Assembly (NCBI GenBank): GCA_934254925.1
Contig: CAKQMD010000004.1
Coordinates: forward strand, 18,664 to 82,663
Length of the DNA: 64,000 nt
Source: an uncultured Alphaproteobacteria bacterium
Lineage (GTDB): Bacteria; Pseudomonadota; Alphaproteobacteria; RF32; CAG-239
Direction: 5' to 3'
Within the stretch, counting starts at the first letter, position 1. Every line of letters starts with the position of its first letter. The translations under genes and the position numbers were made by a program. Under the pieces are notes generated by a model. The model was not told the origin of the DNA. It made no database searches and worked only from the letters and a program-made list of their open reading frames with translations. Positions 9,270 to 59,818 of this stretch are shown here, one piece after another.

Positions 9270-9514
9270 TTATCTTCAGAATCGCCGGAAACGGATTCAC
9301 GAATCGCTTGTAACTGTGGATTCCAGGGGCTTAGCTGTGAATAAGTGCTTGAAAAAACCTTCCGAAATGAAATATTTTGGGGAAAAATGCGCTTTTTGGG
9401 CTGAAAAACGTTGATTTTATTTGACTTATAGAGAAATTGCAGCTTAAATTTTCTTGTGGAAGGGATTTATCTTTCACATTGGTTTATAACTTATCATTAG
9501 AGGGAGTCCTCACC

Positions 9515-9787
9515 GTGAATAAAAATGAATTGATTTCTAGCATTGCTAGCGAAACCGGCCTTACCAAAACTGATTCGGCAAAGGCTTTGGATGCATTTGT
9601 AAGCTCTATTACCAATGCTTTGAAGAAAGGTGACGAAGTTCGTCTGGTTGGCTTTGGTACTTTTGCCGTTTCTAAGCGTTCTGCTACGACCGGCCGCAAT
9701 CCTCGTACCGGTGCCGCTATTAAAATTCCGGCCCGCAAACAGGCTAAGTTCAAAGCTGGTAAAGCTCTGCAAGACTCTGTAAACTAA
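9515..9787 (+). CDS. hupB: HU family DNA-binding protein
   Basis: MNKNELISSIA...RNPRTGAAIKIPARKQAKFKAGKAL. GTG start at 9515 preceded by AGGGAG. Confidence 0.9.
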   Translation: MNKNELISSIASETGLTKTDSAKALDAFVSSITNALKKGDEVRLVGFGTFAVSKRSATTGRNPRTGAAIKIPARKQAKFKAGKALQDSVN

Positions 9788-13195: not shown

Positions 13196-13272
13196 GGGCG
13201 TTTAGCTCAGCTGGTCAGAGCATCTCGTTTACACCGAGAGGGTCGGGAGTTCGAATCTCTCAACGCCCACCA
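13196..13272 (+). tRNA. tRNA-Val (anticodon TAC)
   Basis: Cloverleaf by eye: acceptor GGGCGTT/AACGCCC, anticodon loop TTTACAC, T-loop TTCGAAT, CCA encoded. Confidence 0.85.
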
Positions 13273-13300
13273 AAAAAGCACCTTTGGGTGCTTTTTTTAT
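13273..13300. terminator. Bidirectional rho-independent terminator
   Basis: AAAAAAGCACC-TTT-GGGTGCTTTTTTT: palindromic hairpin with an A-run on one side and a T-run on the other. Confidence 0.7.
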
Positions 13301-13376
13301 TGTGGAAGTAGAGATTTGAACTCCCGGGAAGGGAGTTCGACTACCAGCGAGAGGCGGGCGGGAGCACGCCGGTCAG
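13301..13376. repeat. 77-bp palindrome-containing repeat element, copy A, immediately 3' of tRNA-Val
   Basis: About 85% identical to 57194..57270. Contains a perfect 8-bp-stem hairpin, GAACTCCC-loop-GGGAGTTC. Minus-strand reading GGGAGTTCAAATCTCT resembles the T-arm of the adjacent tRNA-Val (GGGAGTTCGAATCTCT). Confidence 0.7.
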
Positions 13377-13765
13377 GACTGCTGCGGACAAGATTGAACT
13401 TGCTTTAGGACATAATGATCGGACAAAGCGCCGGTAATCGGTTGTTTCTCCATGTCCAGTCTTCTGATTTGCTTGTCTTCCAAGCGATACCAGGTGATTT
13501 CGTCCTGAGGGTCATCCGGCGTCAGTTCCAGCAATTGGCCTTCAATTCGGTATTCGCCTGATTCATCAAACCTGCCGTCGGCCTGGTCAATGTAAACGAT
13601 GGTTTGGTGGTAGGCATGATTTGTTTGGAAGCGGATGGTGGTCTCAATTCCCGGTCCGTCGGCGGCCGGGAGAATGCCTCGGTAGGTTCCGCAAAGGTCA
13701 TTATGATGGTGAAAGCAAGCCGTGAGTGCTAAAAAAGCCAATAAAGCCAAAGGTTTTGCCGACAT
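13373..13765 (-). CDS. NlpE N-terminal-domain lipoprotein
   Basis: Signal peptide with lipobox LTAC; GTYRGILPAADGPGIETTIRF matches the NlpE N-domain pattern GxYxGxLPxADxxGIxT. Confidence 0.65.
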   Translation of the reverse strand: MSAKPLALLAFLALTACFHHHNDLCGTYRGILPAADGPGIETTIRFQTNHAYHQTIVYIDQADGRFDESGEYRIEGQLLELTPDDPQDEITWYRLEDKQIRRLDMEKQPITGALSDHYVLKQVQSCPQQS

Positions 13766-37836: not shown

Positions 37837-37912
37837 GGGTGCGTAGCTCAGTTGGTAGAGCAACTGACTCTTAATCAGTGGGTCTGGGGTTCGAACCCCC
37901 ACGCGCCTACCA
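37837..37912 (+). tRNA. tRNA-Lys (anticodon CTT)
   Basis: Cloverleaf by eye: anticodon stem ACTGA/TCAGT, loop CTCTTAA, T-loop TTCGAAC, CCA encoded. Confidence 0.8.
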
Positions 37913-37920
37913 ATAAGAAA

Positions 37921-37956
37921 GACCGGGTGGAAGTTTTGTCCCCGGTCTTTTTTTTA
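37921..37956 (+). terminator. Rho-independent terminator after tRNA-Lys
   Basis: GACCGGG-loop-CCCGGTC followed by T9. Confidence 0.65.
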
Positions 37957-38133
37957 TTCGGGGGTTCTCACCCTGCGGGTTCGTCTGGCTCGTAAGTTTT
38001 TGCGTTGCAAAAAATAACTCGCTGCGGTCACTCGTCTTGTAACGCTTGTTTGGCACGCTTTGCGGCGGCACAAGCTAACAAGACTTCGCCTGTCGTCAGA
38101 AAAGCTTTCACCGGAAGCTTTTCTTTCCTCCAG

Positions 38134-38178
38134 CCCCACGCGCCTACCAATAAGAAAGACCGGGTGGAAGTTTTGTCC
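38134..38178 (+). repeat. 45-bp direct duplicate of the tRNA-Lys 3' end plus the first half of its terminator (copy 2; copy 1 is 37897..37941)
   Basis: CCCCACGCGCCTACCAATAAGAAAGACCGGGTGGAAGTTTTGTCC occurs twice, 192 bp apart. Copy 2 lacks the terminator's 3' half. Confidence 0.8.
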
Positions 38179-38308: not shown

Positions 38309-40729
38309 ATGAGACTATCAAGAACAGCCATCAGGGTTTTATCGGCACAGTATCGCTCTGTGTTGAAAAAGTGCCTTTTAATCAACCTGGGGGTATTTTT
38401 CTTTGCCGGCGTGGCCGGAGCAAAAGACTTTACGACCGGCGAGACGTTGGACGGTTTTAAGGGGGCGGAAACGTTGAACGTGTCCAACGTTGAGAATGTG
38501 ACCATCAAAAACGTTGACAGTACAGGAGCTGGAATCGAGTTTGTTTTTGACAATGCGCAAAACGTTAAAATCGAAAATTCCGATTTGGAGACGGACGGCG
38601 GAAATGTCAGCATTACCAATACCAAAGATTTTTCATACAGCTGCGTCGGCTGTTATGACGATACGGGTGACAATCCCGAGGAATATTACAGCAAATATAT
38701 GTTGGGCGAGGACGTCAATATTTCTGGAAGTACAATTACCTTGGGCACGGATGACAAGATGGACGATTATGCGCGCATCAGCGCCAATCGGGAATTGAAC
38801 ATTACCAATAAAAGCGAAATTACCATGTATGGAAGTTCGGCCTTGGTGTATGAAGGAACGGAAGCCGACGACGGAACCGGCGTCGTCAGTATTTCGGACA
38901 GCAAGCTGTCCTTATATGATAAGTCAGCCTTATGGGTCGGTGAGCCCGGCTGGTGGCTTGGGCAGGACGAAAACAATGATGCGACGGCGCCACTGTTGGT
39001 TTCTAATTCCGAAATCAGCTTAAATGACGACGCTTCAGTCAATTTTGCCGGCAACGGAGCGGAAACCATCATTCAGAATAATTCCAGTATCACAATGAAC
39101 GATCGTTCTTCCATGAAGCTAAACGACTTGGTATTGAAAGATTCGACAATTACTATCAGCGGTGATGCTGCGACCTCCGACGGAAAAGCAAGACTTGAAG
39201 TCAACAATGTTACTTTGGACAACTCGTCTATTTTGGGTGACAATAACATCGTCGATTTCAGCGGAGAGGTCGATTTTACCGGGCTCTTTGATCCGGCGAC
39301 GGCGAACGTTAAGGGAAATTTGACCCGCGGCGGCTATGACGACGACATTACTTATAATATTACCGGTACACTGACATATACCAATGACAAGTTTTTATAT
39401 GATGCAGAAAAACATGGCAGCGAATATGCGCTTAACAGTCTCAATTTTAAAGGCGGGCAACTGAACATTGTCAATGACGAGGCTTCGGAAATCAAATTAA
39501 CCAAGCTTTCTTTGAACGAAACCTCGACCATTGCCCTGGATGCAGATTTGGAAAACAAGAAGATGGACCGTTTTTCCGCCGATACGGTCGTTGACGGCAG
39601 CGGGAAACTTAATATTTCCAAAATCAACCTCATCTCTGACGCCAAAGACGCAGAGACGGTGATTAACTTTACCCAAAATCAGACCTTGTTGGAGGCGACC
39701 GATTATACCGGCGACACTAACGGTTTAAAAGCCCTCTCCCCGGTTTATACTTATGACGTGGCCTATGACAAAACAAACGGCGATTTTACTTTTACCCGCG
39801 GATCAGGAGCTTCCGTTTCCGACTATAACCCTGCGGTTTATGCCGCGTCGGTGGTCGGACATACGGTCGATTTCCTGCAAACCAATGTTGCCAATGTCGC
39901 TTTTGACAACCTGGCGCAAAATCTCGACGATGGAAAACAAGGATTGGCAAGCGGCGATCTGCCGAAAGCCAATAACGCCTGGGTTTCGGTTATCGGTTTT
40001 GACGACAGCGTCGACTTTGACAAGTTTCAATCGGTTGATTCTGATATGACATCGGTGATCGGCGGTGTATCATCGGACGTTCAGCTCACAGACTTGGGAG
40101 ACGTGACTTATGGCGTCTATGCCGGTTATATGCACGGCGAGATTGAATATGACGGCAACAAGATCAACCAAGACGGTGGGTATATCGGCCTGGGAACGAG
40201 AATCGAAAAAGGCAATGCTGTGGTTCAAGGCGCTGTTAACGGCGGTTTTATCGGTAATGAGGAGAAAAATTCTTTCGGAAAAGATAAATTCGATACCTAT
40301 TGGGCCGGTCTTGCGGTGAAAGGTGGTTATGATTACAAGCTTGACAACGGGGTTACGATTCAGCCGAACGTTTATGCCGGATATACTTTTGTGAACAATG
40401 AAGACTATACCTTAAGGTCCGGCACAAAAATTGAAAACGACAATCTGCATTTGTTTGAAGTTGCGCCGGGGATCAAGCTCAGCAAAGACTTCCAAAACGG
40501 TTGGAACGGCTTTGCCCAAGTTAAATATGCTTTTGTCATGGACAATGGCGGAGACTTGAATGTTGGCGATGCTGTTTTGCCTAACATTAGTGCCGACGAT
40601 TATGTTGAGTACGGCGTCGGCCTTGAGAAAACCCTCAATGACGAATGGGATCTTTCCGCCAGCGTCAACCGCAGAGACGGAGGACGCGAAGGTTGGAACG
40701 GTAGCGTCAATTTCCGGTATAACTTTTAA
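38309..40729 (+). CDS. Autotransporter outer membrane protein, 806 aa
   Basis: Extended signal peptide (MRLSRTAIRVLSAQYRSVLKKCLLINLGVFFFAGVAGA), beta-helix-like passenger, C-terminal beta-barrel ending ...GSVNFRYNF. Confidence 0.8.
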   Translation: MRLSRTAIRVLSAQYRSVLKKCLLINLGVFFFAGVAGAKDFTTGETLDGFKGAETLNVSNVENVTIKNVDSTGAGIEFVFDNAQNVKIENSDLETDGGNVSITNTKDFSYSCVGCYDDTGDNPEEYYSKYMLGEDVNISGSTITLGTDDKMDDYARISANRELNITNKSEITMYGSSALVYEGTEADDGTGVVSISDSKLSLYDKSALWVGEPGWWLGQDENNDATAPLLVSNSEISLNDDASVNFAGNGAETIIQNNSSITMNDRSSMKLNDLVLKDSTITISGDAATSDGKARLEVNNVTLDNSSILGDNNIVDFSGEVDFTGLFDPATANVKGNLTRGGYDDDITYNITGTLTYTNDKFLYDAEKHGSEYALNSLNFKGGQLNIVNDEASEIKLTKLSLNETSTIALDADLENKKMDRFSADTVVDGSGKLNISKINLISDAKDAETVINFTQNQTLLEATDYTGDTNGLKALSPVYTYDVAYDKTNGDFTFTRGSGASVSDYNPAVYAASVVGHTVDFLQTNVANVAFDNLAQNLDDGKQGLASGDLPKANNAWVSVIGFDDSVDFDKFQSVDSDMTSVIGGVSSDVQLTDLGDVTYGVYAGYMHGEIEYDGNKINQDGGYIGLGTRIEKGNAVVQGAVNGGFIGNEEKNSFGKDKFDTYWAGLAVKGGYDYKLDNGVTIQPNVYAGYTFVNNEDYTLRSGTKIENDNLHLFEVAPGIKLSKDFQNGWNGFAQVKYAFVMDNGGDLNVGDAVLPNISADDYVEYGVGLEKTLNDEWDLSASVNRRDGGREGWNGSVNFRYNF

Positions 40730-57061: not shown

Positions 57062-57151
57062 GGAGAGGTGGCAGAGCGGTTTAATGCAGCGGTCTTGAAA
57101 ACCGTCGAGGGAGCGATCCCTCCGGGAGTTCGAATCTCCCCCTCTCCGCCA
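57062..57151 (+). tRNA. tRNA-Ser (anticodon TGA)
   Basis: Class II tRNA, acceptor GGAGAGG/CCTCTCC, anticodon loop CTTGAAA, long variable arm, T-loop TTCGAAT, CCA encoded. Confidence 0.8.
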
Positions 57152-57159
57152 TAACAAAA

Positions 57160-57191
57160 ACGGCCTGCCTTGTGCGGGCTGTTTTTGTTAT
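57160..57191 (+). terminator. Rho-independent terminator after tRNA-Ser(TGA)
   Basis: GCCTGC-CTTGT-GCGGGC plus TGTTTTTGTTAT. Confidence 0.55.
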
Positions 57192-57193
57192 GA

Positions 57194-57270
57194 TGTGGAA
57201 GGGAGGAATTTGAACTCCCCAAAAGGGAGTTCGACTACCAGTGAGAGGCGGACGTGAGGACGCCGGTCAG
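57194..57270. repeat. 77-bp palindrome-containing repeat element, copy B, 3' of tRNA-Ser(TGA)
   Basis: Aligns with 13301..13376 over the TGTGGAAG...ACGCCGGTCAG core; identical 8-bp hairpin stem with a different loop (CAAAA vs GGGAA). Confidence 0.7.
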
Positions 57271-57313
57271 CAACGCTGACGAACGCCTGTGCAACTCGAG
57301 CAACGCGAAGAGT

Positions 57314-57372
57314 AATCTCCCCCTCTCCGCCATAACAAAAACGGCCTGCCTTGTGCGGGCTGTTTTTGTTAT
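57314..57372 (+). repeat. 59-bp direct duplicate of the tRNA-Ser(TGA) 3' end plus terminator (copy 2; copy 1 is 57133..57191)
   Basis: AATCTCCCCCTCTCCGCCATAACAAAAACGGCCTGCCTTGTGCGGGCTGTTTTTGTTAT is present twice, 181 bp apart, bracketing repeat element B. Confidence 0.85.
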
Positions 57373-57463: not shown

Positions 57464-59818
57464 TTAGAATTTGTACTTTGCGTTCAGCAAACCGGTATGA
57501 TCCTGATAATCTTCGCGGAATTTTCCTTCATATCCGAGGGAAAGTTCAACATCGTCATTCACATCTGCCGTAATACCGGCACCGGCTTCAAAGCCGAGAC
57601 GCTTCAGAGCGCGGCCTTCGACATTGTAAACCGAGCCGTTGGCCAAGCTGACCACAGAGCTGCCGGCATCGTTCTTCATATCATAGGTCATTGCCACTCT
57701 GATTTCCGGACGCAGATTCATACCGTTTTCCAGAGCAAAGTCTTTGGTTGCCTTGGCTCCGATAATACCGGTCAGGAGATCGGCATTATTCTGGGAAACG
57801 GTCTGGCCGAGAGAATCCGTGTAACCGTCCTGTTTGGCATGGATGTAACGCAATCCTGCTTCAGGCGTTAAGATATAACCGTTGACATTAAAGTCATAAC
57901 CGGTCATCGCCTGCAATGCAAAGGAATCAACGTTGTATTTGGCATGATTGCCGTCATATTTGTTTTCTTTGTAATCTCCCCAGCTGTAAGAGGCAATACC
58001 GTTAACAAACCAAGCAGAGGGCTTATATTCACCATAGACGAAAGCCGTATTGGTATCAACGTCGGTTTTGCGCATCAGGCCTTTGATATCGCCGCTGGTG
58101 TAGGCATAACCGGCACCAACTTTGACGTCATCAGCGGCATAGGTTTCGCCGCCGAGGGCAATACCGGCGGAATTGCTCTTGAAACCGGCTCCTTTCGAGG
58201 TGTCGTCAAGTTTGGCCTTGTTAATCAAACCCTGGACCCAAACGGCGCCGCGTTCAAACATGCTATCACCAGAGGCAGCCCCTTCGGCCGAACCGGAGAT
58301 TGCACCGCCGCTCAGACGCGTGCTGACGGCATTGAAAATTTGATTGGTGTGTTCTGTTACCTGAGCCTGAGTCATCGGTGCGGCTTCCGGCGCAACGGCA
58401 GAAGCGATGTCAGCTGCAGCCTTAACGTTATCTGTTTGCAGCAAACCGGACATAGTCGTTGCCACATTGTCAGCCGCCTGATTGTTCAGGTTTCCGGCCG
58501 TGAAAGCCGCCAGCGTTCCGGCCTGAGAAGCCGTCGCCTGACCGGTGGCCGCAACGTCAGCCGCAACGGCGTCGGCTGCTTTTTTGACAACTTCCAATTC
58601 GCCGCCGCTGTAGGCTTTGGTTTCAGCGTCATAGGCGTCGCCGCCGTAGGTGTACAGCAGGTTGTCGGCCAAAATCAGCTTACCGTTGGTATCCGTTACG
58701 GAATCGGCCGCGGTAATTTTTGAATCTTCTCCAACGACAACGTCATCGGAAAGGACGATTTTCAAAGTGGCGTCACCGGTGGCTTCGGCCGAACCGACCG
58801 TTACGCTTCCGAGATTGCCGGAAACAAAGTCTTTGTCCACGTGAACATTGGCAGAAGTTCCCGCCGCCAGAGTGGTCGAGCCGATCGTTGCGCCGCTCAT
58901 AACGTCAAGGCTGCCGCCTTTATGAGTCAAAGAAGTGATTGTACCGTTGTTGACCAAGCTACCGCTGTTGATTACGGTTGTTCCGAGCGTTATGTCTTTG
59001 GCAATGTTAACGGTGCCGGTGTTGGTCAGGTCAGCGCTGCCGTCAACATTGGCGTTGACGTTCAGTGTTCCATTATTGGCAACTGCTTTGTTGTTAAACG
59101 TGGTTTCGTTTTCAATGCTCAAATTACCATTGGCAACGACGTCTCCATCTCCGGAAATCGTCAGCTTCGAACCTTCCAAACCGCTGATTCGGCCGGTGCC
59201 GTTAAAAGTGACGGTTTTGTCCTCCGACGTTTGCAACTCACTTGTAGCGTTCCAAATGCTGATCCGGCCGTCGTCAAAAGTCAGGTTTCCCACGGTCAAA
59301 GGTTTGTTGCCAAGGACCAAAGCACCGTCGGAAGCTCCTTCATTGGCGGTATTGTTCTTGTTGGAAATGGTCAAGTCCAATTTGCTCAAATCATATTGCG
59401 CATCAGGAGAAACTGTCAAATATCCGTTAACACGAAGAGAGGCACCTTCTTCGGCGTCGATGGTCGGCGCATTGTTGGCTTCAAGGGTCAATTGATCGTT
59501 AATGGTATTGCTGCCTTTGAAAGTAATGGTACCGACTTCGGTAAACAAGCCGCCGATCGCTACGCGGGAAGCCGTTTCTTCCGGGCCGACGCGCGGCAGA
59601 GAAATGTTAGCATTTTCAATAGTCATGCCGGTATCACCGGGGTTAAGCACGATGTGGGAATTGCTTCCGCCATCTTTAGTCACTGTTCCGCTCAAAACAC
59701 CGCCGGTATAGACAGTCATATTCCCCTCTTGGGTGACGACGGGCGCTTCGGCCATAGCCGGAGCCGCCGTCAGCAAAACGGCAAAGGAGCTGGAGATTAA
59801 CAAAGTATTTTTCATCAA
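57464..59818 (-). CDS. Autotransporter outer membrane protein, 784 aa
   Basis: Signal peptide MMKNTLLISSSFAVLLTAAPAMA, G/T/N-rich passenger, C-terminal barrel ending ...LLNAKYKF. Confidence 0.8.
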   Translation of the reverse strand: MMKNTLLISSSFAVLLTAAPAMAEAPVVTQEGNMTVYTGGVLSGTVTKDGGSNSHIVLNPGDTGMTIENANISLPRVGPEETASRVAIGGLFTEVGTITFKGSNTINDQLTLEANNAPTIDAEEGASLRVNGYLTVSPDAQYDLSKLDLTISNKNNTANEGASDGALVLGNKPLTVGNLTFDDGRISIWNATSELQTSEDKTVTFNGTGRISGLEGSKLTISGDGDVVANGNLSIENETTFNNKAVANNGTLNVNANVDGSADLTNTGTVNIAKDITLGTTVINSGSLVNNGTITSLTHKGGSLDVMSGATIGSTTLAAGTSANVHVDKDFVSGNLGSVTVGSAEATGDATLKIVLSDDVVVGEDSKITAADSVTDTNGKLILADNLLYTYGGDAYDAETKAYSGGELEVVKKAADAVAADVAATGQATASQAGTLAAFTAGNLNNQAADNVATTMSGLLQTDNVKAAADIASAVAPEAAPMTQAQVTEHTNQIFNAVSTRLSGGAISGSAEGAASGDSMFERGAVWVQGLINKAKLDDTSKGAGFKSNSAGIALGGETYAADDVKVGAGYAYTSGDIKGLMRKTDVDTNTAFVYGEYKPSAWFVNGIASYSWGDYKENKYDGNHAKYNVDSFALQAMTGYDFNVNGYILTPEAGLRYIHAKQDGYTDSLGQTVSQNNADLLTGIIGAKATKDFALENGMNLRPEIRVAMTYDMKNDAGSSVVSLANGSVYNVEGRALKRLGFEAGAGITADVNDDVELSLGYEGKFREDYQDHTGLLNAKYKF

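Follow-up and report, generated by a model that had tools for sequence, protein, structure and literature searches.

What is the short, hairpin-containing sequence that follows two different tRNA genes in a single 64-kb window (the whole stretch of DNA analysed here), and by what route did it reach both? A preliminary description had placed two copies of a 77-bp element in the window, each directly after a tRNA terminator, and this placement holds. Copy A (13301-13376, plus strand) follows tRNA-Val(tac) (13196-13272) and its terminator, and copy B, as first delimited (57194-57270, plus strand), follows tRNA-Ser(tga) (57062-57151) and its terminator. Global alignment matches 66 of 77 positions (85.7%), in agreement with the earlier estimate of about 85%, and BLAST aligns copy A with copy B over 63 nt at 88.9%. 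As described, the copies share their ends (TGTGGAAG at the start, ACGCCGGTCAG at the end) and an 8-bp stem, GAACTCCC/GGGAGTTC, whose loops differ (GGGAA vs CAAAA). A 29-base core pattern is matched twice in the window, against 0.00 matches expected from shuffles, and with its filters off a covariance model detects these two copies and no other in the 64 kb. Neisseria DUS and Pasteurellaceae USS motifs were looked for as well and are absent. The 77 bp are the left two-thirds of a non-coding module of about 122 nt, which in turn sits in a unit of about 181 bp. That they might prove to be part of a longer annotated element had been foreseen; the longer element exists, without annotation or description in the sources searched.

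A truncated copy at tRNA-Val and a complete unit at tRNA-Ser

The features of copy A and its host gene are as follows.

13196..13272, plus strand: tRNA-Val(tac), the host of copy A (ARAGORN; Rfam tRNA, 70.2 bits)
13273..13300, plus strand: terminator palindrome of tRNA-Val, AAAAAAGCACC-TTT-GGGTGCTTTTTTT (sequence reading)
13301..13317, plus strand: left segment EL, a degenerate inverted tRNA-Val 3′ end (TGTGGAAGTAGAGATTT; duplex and alignment)
13318..13338, plus strand: hairpin H (GAACTCCC-GGGAA-GGGAGTTC), with a stem that is invariant in all homologues
13339..13376, plus strand: 5′ strand of P2 (TACCAGCG), hp2 (13353-13370) and GGTCAG, the truncation point

The module breaks off after GGTCAG, which leaves copy A without hp3, hp4, the tRNA repeat or the second (3′) strand of P2; the covariance-model score is 51.8 bits, vs 84.8 bits for copy B. 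The same truncation is found in 8 conspecific contigs or strains, and copy A is a truncated relic that is fixed among these 8 strains. One strain (L024 1572-1646, corresponding to window 13353-13370) carries three substitutions in hp2 of copy A, which there reads GGCAGGT GGGA GCCCGCC; one G.A opposition becomes G-C, one pair is broken and one U.G wobble is made.

The likeness to a tRNA T-arm noticed earlier on the minus strand of copy A is real (GGGAGTTCAAATCTCT vs GGGAGTTCGAATCTCTC in tRNA-Val), and the accompanying idea of a degenerate tRNA 3′ half fits the left part of the element, which is a degenerate tRNA 3′ end in inverted orientation. A duplex between EL of copy A and the tRNA-Val 3′ end is calculated at -13.8 kcal/mol (z = -2.9 vs shuffled EL). 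Other tRNAs with the T-arm sequence GGGAGTTCGAATC would be candidate targets. The interior was also considered as a degenerate tRNA copy or captured filler; this was rejected, since beyond the T-arm 10-mer the interior does not significantly resemble tRNA-Val, tRNA-Ser or tRNA-Lys. The idea that copy A marks a larger island was rejected as well, as the window holds no second tRNA-Val 3′ end and the loci hold no extra tRNA fragments. Copy A does overlap the neighbouring NlpE-like gene, but by the stop codon only (13373-13375) and not by several codons as first thought. This NlpE-domain ORF occupies 13373-13765 on the minus strand, and its stop codon falls inside GGTCAG of copy A.

At tRNA-Ser the initial delimitation was too short. 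The stretch 57194..57270 is indeed homologous to copy A, but the homology runs on to 57313, and a 59-nt direct repeat at 57314-57372 had been missed.

57062..57151, plus strand: tRNA-Ser(tga), the host of copy B (ARAGORN; Rfam)
57133..57191, plus strand: direct repeat 1, the tRNA-Ser 3′ end from the T-loop (AATCTCCCCCTCTCCGCCA) plus terminator (repeat search, 59 nt, 100% identity)
57192..57211, plus strand: left segment EL (GATGTGGAAGGGAGGAATTT), predicted 5′ strand of the closing helix P1 (folding and alignment)
57212..57232, plus strand: hairpin H (covariation alignment; covariance model)
57236..57291, plus strand: three-way-junction core (RNAalifold; covariation counts; covariance model, 84.8 bits, E = 6e-17)
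57236-57243 paired with 57284-57291, plus strand: P2, enclosing hp2 and hp3
57247-57264, plus strand: hp2 (GTGA loop), inside P2
57266-57280, plus strand: hp3, inside P2
57294..57313, plus strand: hp4 (ACTC...GAGT), whose last base abuts the repeated tRNA 3′ end
57314..57372, plus strand: direct repeat 2, a pseudo tRNA-Ser 3′ end plus terminator copy, a perfect 59-nt repeat of 57133-57191
57314-57332, plus strand: pseudo tRNA-Ser 3′ end within direct repeat 2 (predicted 3′ strand of P1, ends GCCA)
57333-57372, plus strand: terminator copy within direct repeat 2

The object at tRNA-Ser is made of a 122-nt insert and the 59-nt repeat, 181 bp altogether. Folded in full with its terminator, the 181-nt unit reaches a minimum free energy of -78.8 kcal/mol (z = -5.7). 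Copy B is a complete unit, and it is polymorphic between strains.

Empty sites, relatives and tandem arrays

A comparison of contigs that encode an identical DUF2157 protein beside tRNA-Ser yields three haplotypes, set apart by the unit and by a 5′-side insertion described below. The allele filled by the 181-bp unit is found in the window, L016 and L018. The empty allele, in L015 and L017 (GCA_964311575.1), is exactly 181 bp shorter and reads ...GTTTTTGTTAT|TGTCAGAGG (...GTTAT at the junction), with flanks otherwise near-identical to those of the filled contigs. Related genomes differ by the presence or absence of the unit with precise boundaries, as is characteristic of integrative elements, and the unit is gained or lost on a within-species time scale. 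Loss alone, through recombination between the repeats, could produce this polymorphism.

A separate 159-nt insertion is present on the 5′ side of tRNA-Ser(tga) in L015, L017 and L018 (reverse strand), at window 57062-57099. It comprises a second copy of the tRNA-Ser 5′ half, 38 nt long with one C/T difference and reaching to the anticodon loop, and a 121-nt interior; its promoter-proximal pseudo-half keeps the allele of the insertion-free strains. The alignment of this interior with the module core is colinear and weak (score 35, vs 21 +/- 4 and a maximum of 37 in shuffles), and the covariance model gives no match in the 5′-side insertion.

Counting the copies in relatives and seeing what they flank had been proposed as a check, and copies were found, at tRNA 3′ flanks. 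An exact hairpin pattern was used to scan 185,579 species genomes, and metagenomes were likewise scanned by exact pattern. The genome scan returned 9 loci from the MAGs of 8 uncultured Alphaproteobacteria (8 species) from roe-deer, other ruminal or gut samples; every match lies directly 3′ of tRNA-Val(tac), and two matches stand 162-184 nt apart in 5 of the 9 loci. The metagenome scan added 3 contigs, from rumen, with the module after tRNA-Ser(cga). Across 129 kb of related loci, all 24 covariance-model matches of at least 31 bits fall in units that directly follow tRNA-Val(tac), tRNA-Ser(tga) or tRNA-Ser(cga), and all 24 share the orientation of the adjoining tRNA.

The units form tandem arrays of 1-3 at a spacing of 162-184 nt. 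Their order is constant: tRNA 3′ end plus terminator, EL, H, GAC, P2 (enclosing hp2 and hp3), hp4 and the next tRNA 3′ end, which begins at AATC or AACC in the T-loop. An intact, full tRNA stands upstream of every unit (ARAGORN, Rfam), and the insertion point falls in the tRNA-Val or tRNA-Ser 3′ end, between the T-loop and just beyond CCA. Direct repeats of the tRNA 3′ end flank the units. They measure 59 nt in the window; at L014 and L009, which have single units, they are short, 20 nt (AATCTCCCTCTCTCCGCCAG) and about 15 nt, respectively, and arrays have longer ones than these two loci. At both loci it is the unit that supplies the terminator behind the intact tRNA, and unrelated flank follows the distal tRNA fragment; at L006 and L012 the distal fragment is decayed. 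Short repeats, a unit-borne terminator and an unrelated distal flank are what an attL/attR arrangement predicts. The options of a repeat targeting tRNA 3′ flanks and of a part of a tRNA-targeting integrative element, both listed in the preliminary description, come closest to what is seen, on the evidence of the direct repeats, the empty site and the tandem arrays in relatives. A classical MITE or REP is not supported, for want of dispersed copies, of a short fixed target duplication and of clean terminal inverted repeats.

Complete units are built alike at more than 10 loci and with three tRNA species. Their interior measures about 95-132 nt and changes in length only within hp3 and hp4. This uniformity across three tRNA species indicates that complete units are not random deletion scars. 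Arrays end at varied internal points: the last part retained is EL in L005 and L007, H in L003, hp2 in copy A and hp3 in L008. Pure site-specific integration does not predict such variety, and secondary deletions are needed to account for it. In the MAG RGIG5112, L001 ends and L008 begins within one array, the tandem units having broken the assembly. The tRNA-Val arrays of L004 and L006 contain two unit variants that differ just after the terminator (GTTGGTTT... vs GTTGGCCT...), and the order of the GTTGGTTT and GTTGGCCT variants is reversed between the two species, which points to turnover or shuffling of units. A gene for an HU-family DNA-binding protein (window 9425-9784; also L003, L005, L006 and L009; 82-92% amino-acid identity) keeps near tRNA-Val from species to species. 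Its place is upstream in L005 and L009; in L003 and L006 the gene stands downstream of the array and is inverted, and the array thus sits at a local rearrangement point.

The window contains a further small insert, at tRNA-Lys(ctt) (37837-37912). Here a perfect 45-nt direct repeat (37897-37941 and 38134-38178) recurs at a distance of 237 nt, with a 192-nt interval (37942-38133), and takes in the 3′ strands of the T-stem and of the acceptor, then CCA and the terminator's first half. Past the terminator, the interior of the insert (37959-38133) starts with a T-arm-like hairpin, CGGGGGTTCTCACCCTG. Fixed in 5 strains, this insert has no relation to the Val/Ser module. Small inserts between tRNA fragments are present or possible at 3 of the 4 tRNA genes of the 64-kb region, and short tRNA-flanked insertions seem to be a general feature of this genome. 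Two autotransporter genes (window 38309-40729 and 57464-59818) each adjoin an insert-bearing tRNA gene, that of tRNA-Lys and that of tRNA-Ser, respectively.

Fold and strand of the interior

The 89 columns of the structure alignment, which takes in 13 units, extend from hairpin H as far as the P2 3′ strand; the 13-14 units available come from few clades. In H and in P2 with its enclosed hp2 and hp3, 95.6% of cells are paired, vs 26-44% when the partners are slid by 1-3 columns. Both sides change at 7 pairs (24 cells); among 500 shuffles, none attained the covariation score or as many doubly changed cells. Within the 89 columns, covariation is confined to hp2 and hp3, while H and P2 are invariant and carry no covariation signal. 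The hp2 stem has recurrent G.A/A.G oppositions, and 7 of the 13 aligned copies close it with a GNRA tetraloop (GGAA, GGGA, GTGA). In hp4 the closing stem, which stops right where the tRNA fragment begins, takes five forms in different clades and always pairs (ACUC/GAGU, ACUCU/AGAGU, GAC/GUC, GGC/GCC, GAGC/GCUC, GCG/CGC). As judged from these comparisons, the interior is a conserved base-paired structure of the tRNA-sense strand. The preliminary description had suspected a conserved structure tied to tRNA 3′ flanks, and the covariation bears this out. Folded single-stranded DNA would fit the same covariation data.

The preliminary description had also proposed that each copy could encode a small RNA of about 80-100 nt on the minus strand, with a tRNA-like 3′ half and ending at the bidirectional tRNA terminator. 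The minus strand does read GGGAGTTCAAATC..CTTCCACA followed by the palindromic terminator, and it folds better than shuffles (z = -4.65). However, two invariant pairs that are U.G and G.U on the plus strand become A.C mismatches on the minus strand, and the hairpin loops are mostly G- and A-rich on the plus strand, with GNRA in most copies of hp2. The consensus fold is weaker as well, at -27.6 kcal/mol (SCI 0.81) vs -33.7 kcal/mol (SCI 0.90) on the plus, tRNA-sense strand. No minus-strand promoter was found, and the minus strand of copy A is the end of a protein-coding gene. The invariant G.U/U.G pairs, the loops and the consensus energy all favour the tRNA-sense strand, and a minus-strand small RNA is very improbable.

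In the minimum-energy folds of most complete units, EL is paired to the downstream pseudo-tRNA 3′ end. The predicted outcome is a four-way junction, made up of P1, H, the P2 domain and hp4 and terminating in NCCA. The EL of L007 and L009 opens with GGGCGUU, which pairs 7/7 with AGCGCCC-A-CCA. In copy B and most Val units, pairing of EL with the local tRNA 3′ end is marginally stronger than that of shuffled EL (z about -2 to -3), but not in L012 and L014; in the clade of L003, L006 and L007 the real tRNA end is a better partner for EL than the fragment within the unit. Modelled in this way, a closing helix P1 formed by EL and the tRNA 3′ end is plausible, though weakly supported. Another arrangement, in which an insertion splits a T-arm formed by the right arm of H and the pseudo 3′ end, was rejected since the pseudo T-stem CCGGT of the L003 clade cannot pair with GGGAG.

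Origin of the units and likeness to known systems

The explanation that we tentatively prefer is that of a miniature element, non-autonomous and integrating at tRNA genes, with a structured RNA on the tRNA-sense strand as its interior. The unit would recombine with the tRNA gene within their shared 3′-end sequence, presumably through an integrase encoded elsewhere in the genome. The tRNA gene would then be completed by the unit's own tRNA 3′ end and terminator, and the original 3′ end, displaced, would stay downstream as a direct repeat. Integration in a shared tRNA 3′ end would account for the presence of repeats, for a tRNA left intact, for a terminator borne by the unit and for distal fragments in decay. 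Tandem arrays may arise by repeated integration or by unequal crossing-over, and recombination between repeats would excise a unit and restore a clean empty site.

A consensus scan, which also misses the tRNAs' own promoters and terminators, found no promoter within the unit. The module is placed behind a strong terminator; lacking a detected promoter of its own, it would need read-through to be transcribed. Its RNA, if made, would most likely be the trailer of the tRNA transcript. The 5′ end of this RNA (EL, antisense-like) may pair with the tRNA 3′ end and so form a cloverleaf-like four-way junction with an NCCA end. Processing by the tRNA maturation machinery is a guess from this acceptor-like end, and any function of the RNA would likewise be conjectural.

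The unit holds no conserved ORF, and no integrase or recombinase was found in or adjoining any unit at the loci examined; the genes next to the units are housekeeping genes (e.g. TrkA, Dus, ThrRS, MurG, CoA transferase) and autotransporters. An ORF with a phage antirepressor KilAC domain (L014 9233-9739), some 350 nt past the distal tRNA-Ser fragment, is the sole phage-like gene near any unit. BLAST of the 181-nt unit against phage and plasmid sequences returned nothing. In IMG/VR, a 17-mer matched only L010 and L011, chance matches in coding regions of high-GC contigs, and the hairpin pattern had 0 matches. An autonomous relative of the element was found in none of the IMG/VR, phage and plasmid collections.

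The structured interior would also suit a resident, non-mobile gene for a tRNA-derived non-coding RNA, that is, a remodelled tRNA paralogue that retains the tRNA's CCA, terminator and 3′ strand, shares its expression and processing, is copied by unequal crossing-over and is kept tRNA-like by gene conversion. Conservation at tRNA-Val in 8 species, in several with the HU gene nearby, speaks for such a gene, and the covariation and the plus-strand preference fit an RNA gene. The 3′ end is tRNA-like, with the 7-bp match of EL to the acceptor strand in L007 and L009, each unit has its own terminator, and no recombinase was found. However, the same core stands at three tRNA genes, each time with the matching 3′ end, which implies two moves or more. 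The units of L014, L009 and L006 bring the terminator with them, and unrelated flank follows the distal fragment there, which resembles insertion and not local duplication. The clean empty site in sister strains and the failure to find a promoter also weigh against a resident gene, which we regard as unlikely, though worth keeping in view. Mobility is granted by another alternative, in which the units are decayed scars of larger integrated elements (prophages, islands or CIME-like elements), att-proximal arms that once bound integrase or accessory proteins and whose structure is incidental. Partial-tRNA repeats are a known signature of past integrations (bioRxiv 10.1101/2020.12.28.424599; PMC5704250), and signs compatible with such a history are the unrelated 237-nt unit with its perfect 45-nt 3′-end repeat at the window's tRNA-Lys, the 159-nt insertion with a duplicated tRNA-Ser 5′ half in some strains and the KilAC-domain ORF beyond the L014 unit. 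Yet independent deletions would leave differing end points, whereas the interior is uniform in all complete units, and compensatory changes in hp2, hp3 and hp4 are unexpected for the protein-binding sites of an arm. No longer version of the element and no integrase fragments were found at any locus examined, and decayed scars appear improbable.

A bolder proposal extends the miniature element to a new class of selfish elements of less than 200 bp that carry no genes. Their sole cargo would be a tRNA-like structured RNA with a 5′ segment complementary to the 3′ end of the target tRNA; they would home by RNA-guided or RNA-templated integration or through a folded att site, ride on tRNA transcription and leave the tRNA intact, and might include the unrelated inserts at tRNA-Lys and in the 5′ half of tRNA-Ser. 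Such a class is speculative, and we consider it improbable in this full form. If the preferred reading of a miniature integrating element is true, tRNA genes of this poorly known gut and rumen lineage host mobile units about a hundredfold smaller than the usual islands and prophages, with nothing in them but a conserved folded module, a terminator and a replacement end for the tRNA. Integrative elements would then range in size down to little more than an att site and an RNA, an undescribed structured RNA motif with a tRNA-like end would be added, and filled and empty alleles in one species would offer a natural system for tRNA-gene recognition. In practical terms, the units break assemblies and can be mistaken for tRNA pseudogenes.

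Several known systems share parts of this arrangement. With tRNA-like RNAs (the tRNA-like domain of tmRNA, Y RNA/YrlA, viral 3′ structures) and functional tRNA 3′ trailers, the units would have in common a predicted acceptor-like helix ending in NCCA, a four-way junction and a place in a tRNA transcription unit. Unlike these RNAs, they have no match in Rfam or ARAGORN, and the lengths of their arms and junctions differ from those of tRNA. Only true tRNAs pass the Rfam gathering thresholds in the window, and at E up to 10 (L005-L007) the units have only sub-threshold chance matches, to no tRNA, tmRNA, tRNA-like, ribozyme or alphaproteobacterial sRNA family; ARAGORN makes no call within units. 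A likeness to the hammerhead ribozyme lies in the three-helix junction and in GAAA-like and GAUGAG-like joining strands in L012 and L013 (...CUGAUGAG...). A hammerhead was rejected, as C3, U4 and G5, all of them catalytic, are not constant among the copies (CCGAUGA, CUUAUGA, CCUAUGC), the A15.1-U16.1 pair is without counterpart and no Rfam hammerhead model matches.

Like MITEs and REP/BIME sequences, the units are short, non-coding, hairpin-containing, repeated and non-autonomous. They differ from MITEs and REP sequences in that copies occur only at tRNA 3′ ends (two in 64 kb) and that the flanking repeat is 15-59 nt of tRNA sequence. The 'inverted repeat' formed by EL and the tRNA 3′ end is also imperfect, unlike that of MITEs, and tracks the local tRNA.

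The closest likeness is to tRNA-targeting integrative elements, CIMEs (att-flanked elements without an integrase; PMC5704250) and tycheposon remnants, for which partial-tRNA remnants and tandem junctions are known (bioRxiv 10.1101/2020.12.28.424599). As in these systems, insertion is in the 3′ part of a tRNA gene, a replacement 3′ end is supplied and the tRNA is left intact. Repeats resembling attL and attR, tandem arrays, decayed distal fragments and variation between strains are shared with tRNA-targeting integrative elements (PMC5704250; bioRxiv 10.1101/2020.12.28.424599). In contrast to integrative elements and CIMEs, the unit measures only 162-184 bp and is without genes, and no cognate integrase-bearing element was found. 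CIMEs are defined by decay from an ICE or IME with attL and attR retained. Att-like repeats are present here; the interior, uniform and structured across three tRNA species, argues against decay products of an ICE or IME. Unlike the interior of CIMEs and tycheposon remnants, it is kept as a base-paired structure and not as decaying coding DNA, and the same interior is joined to three different tRNA 3′ ends.
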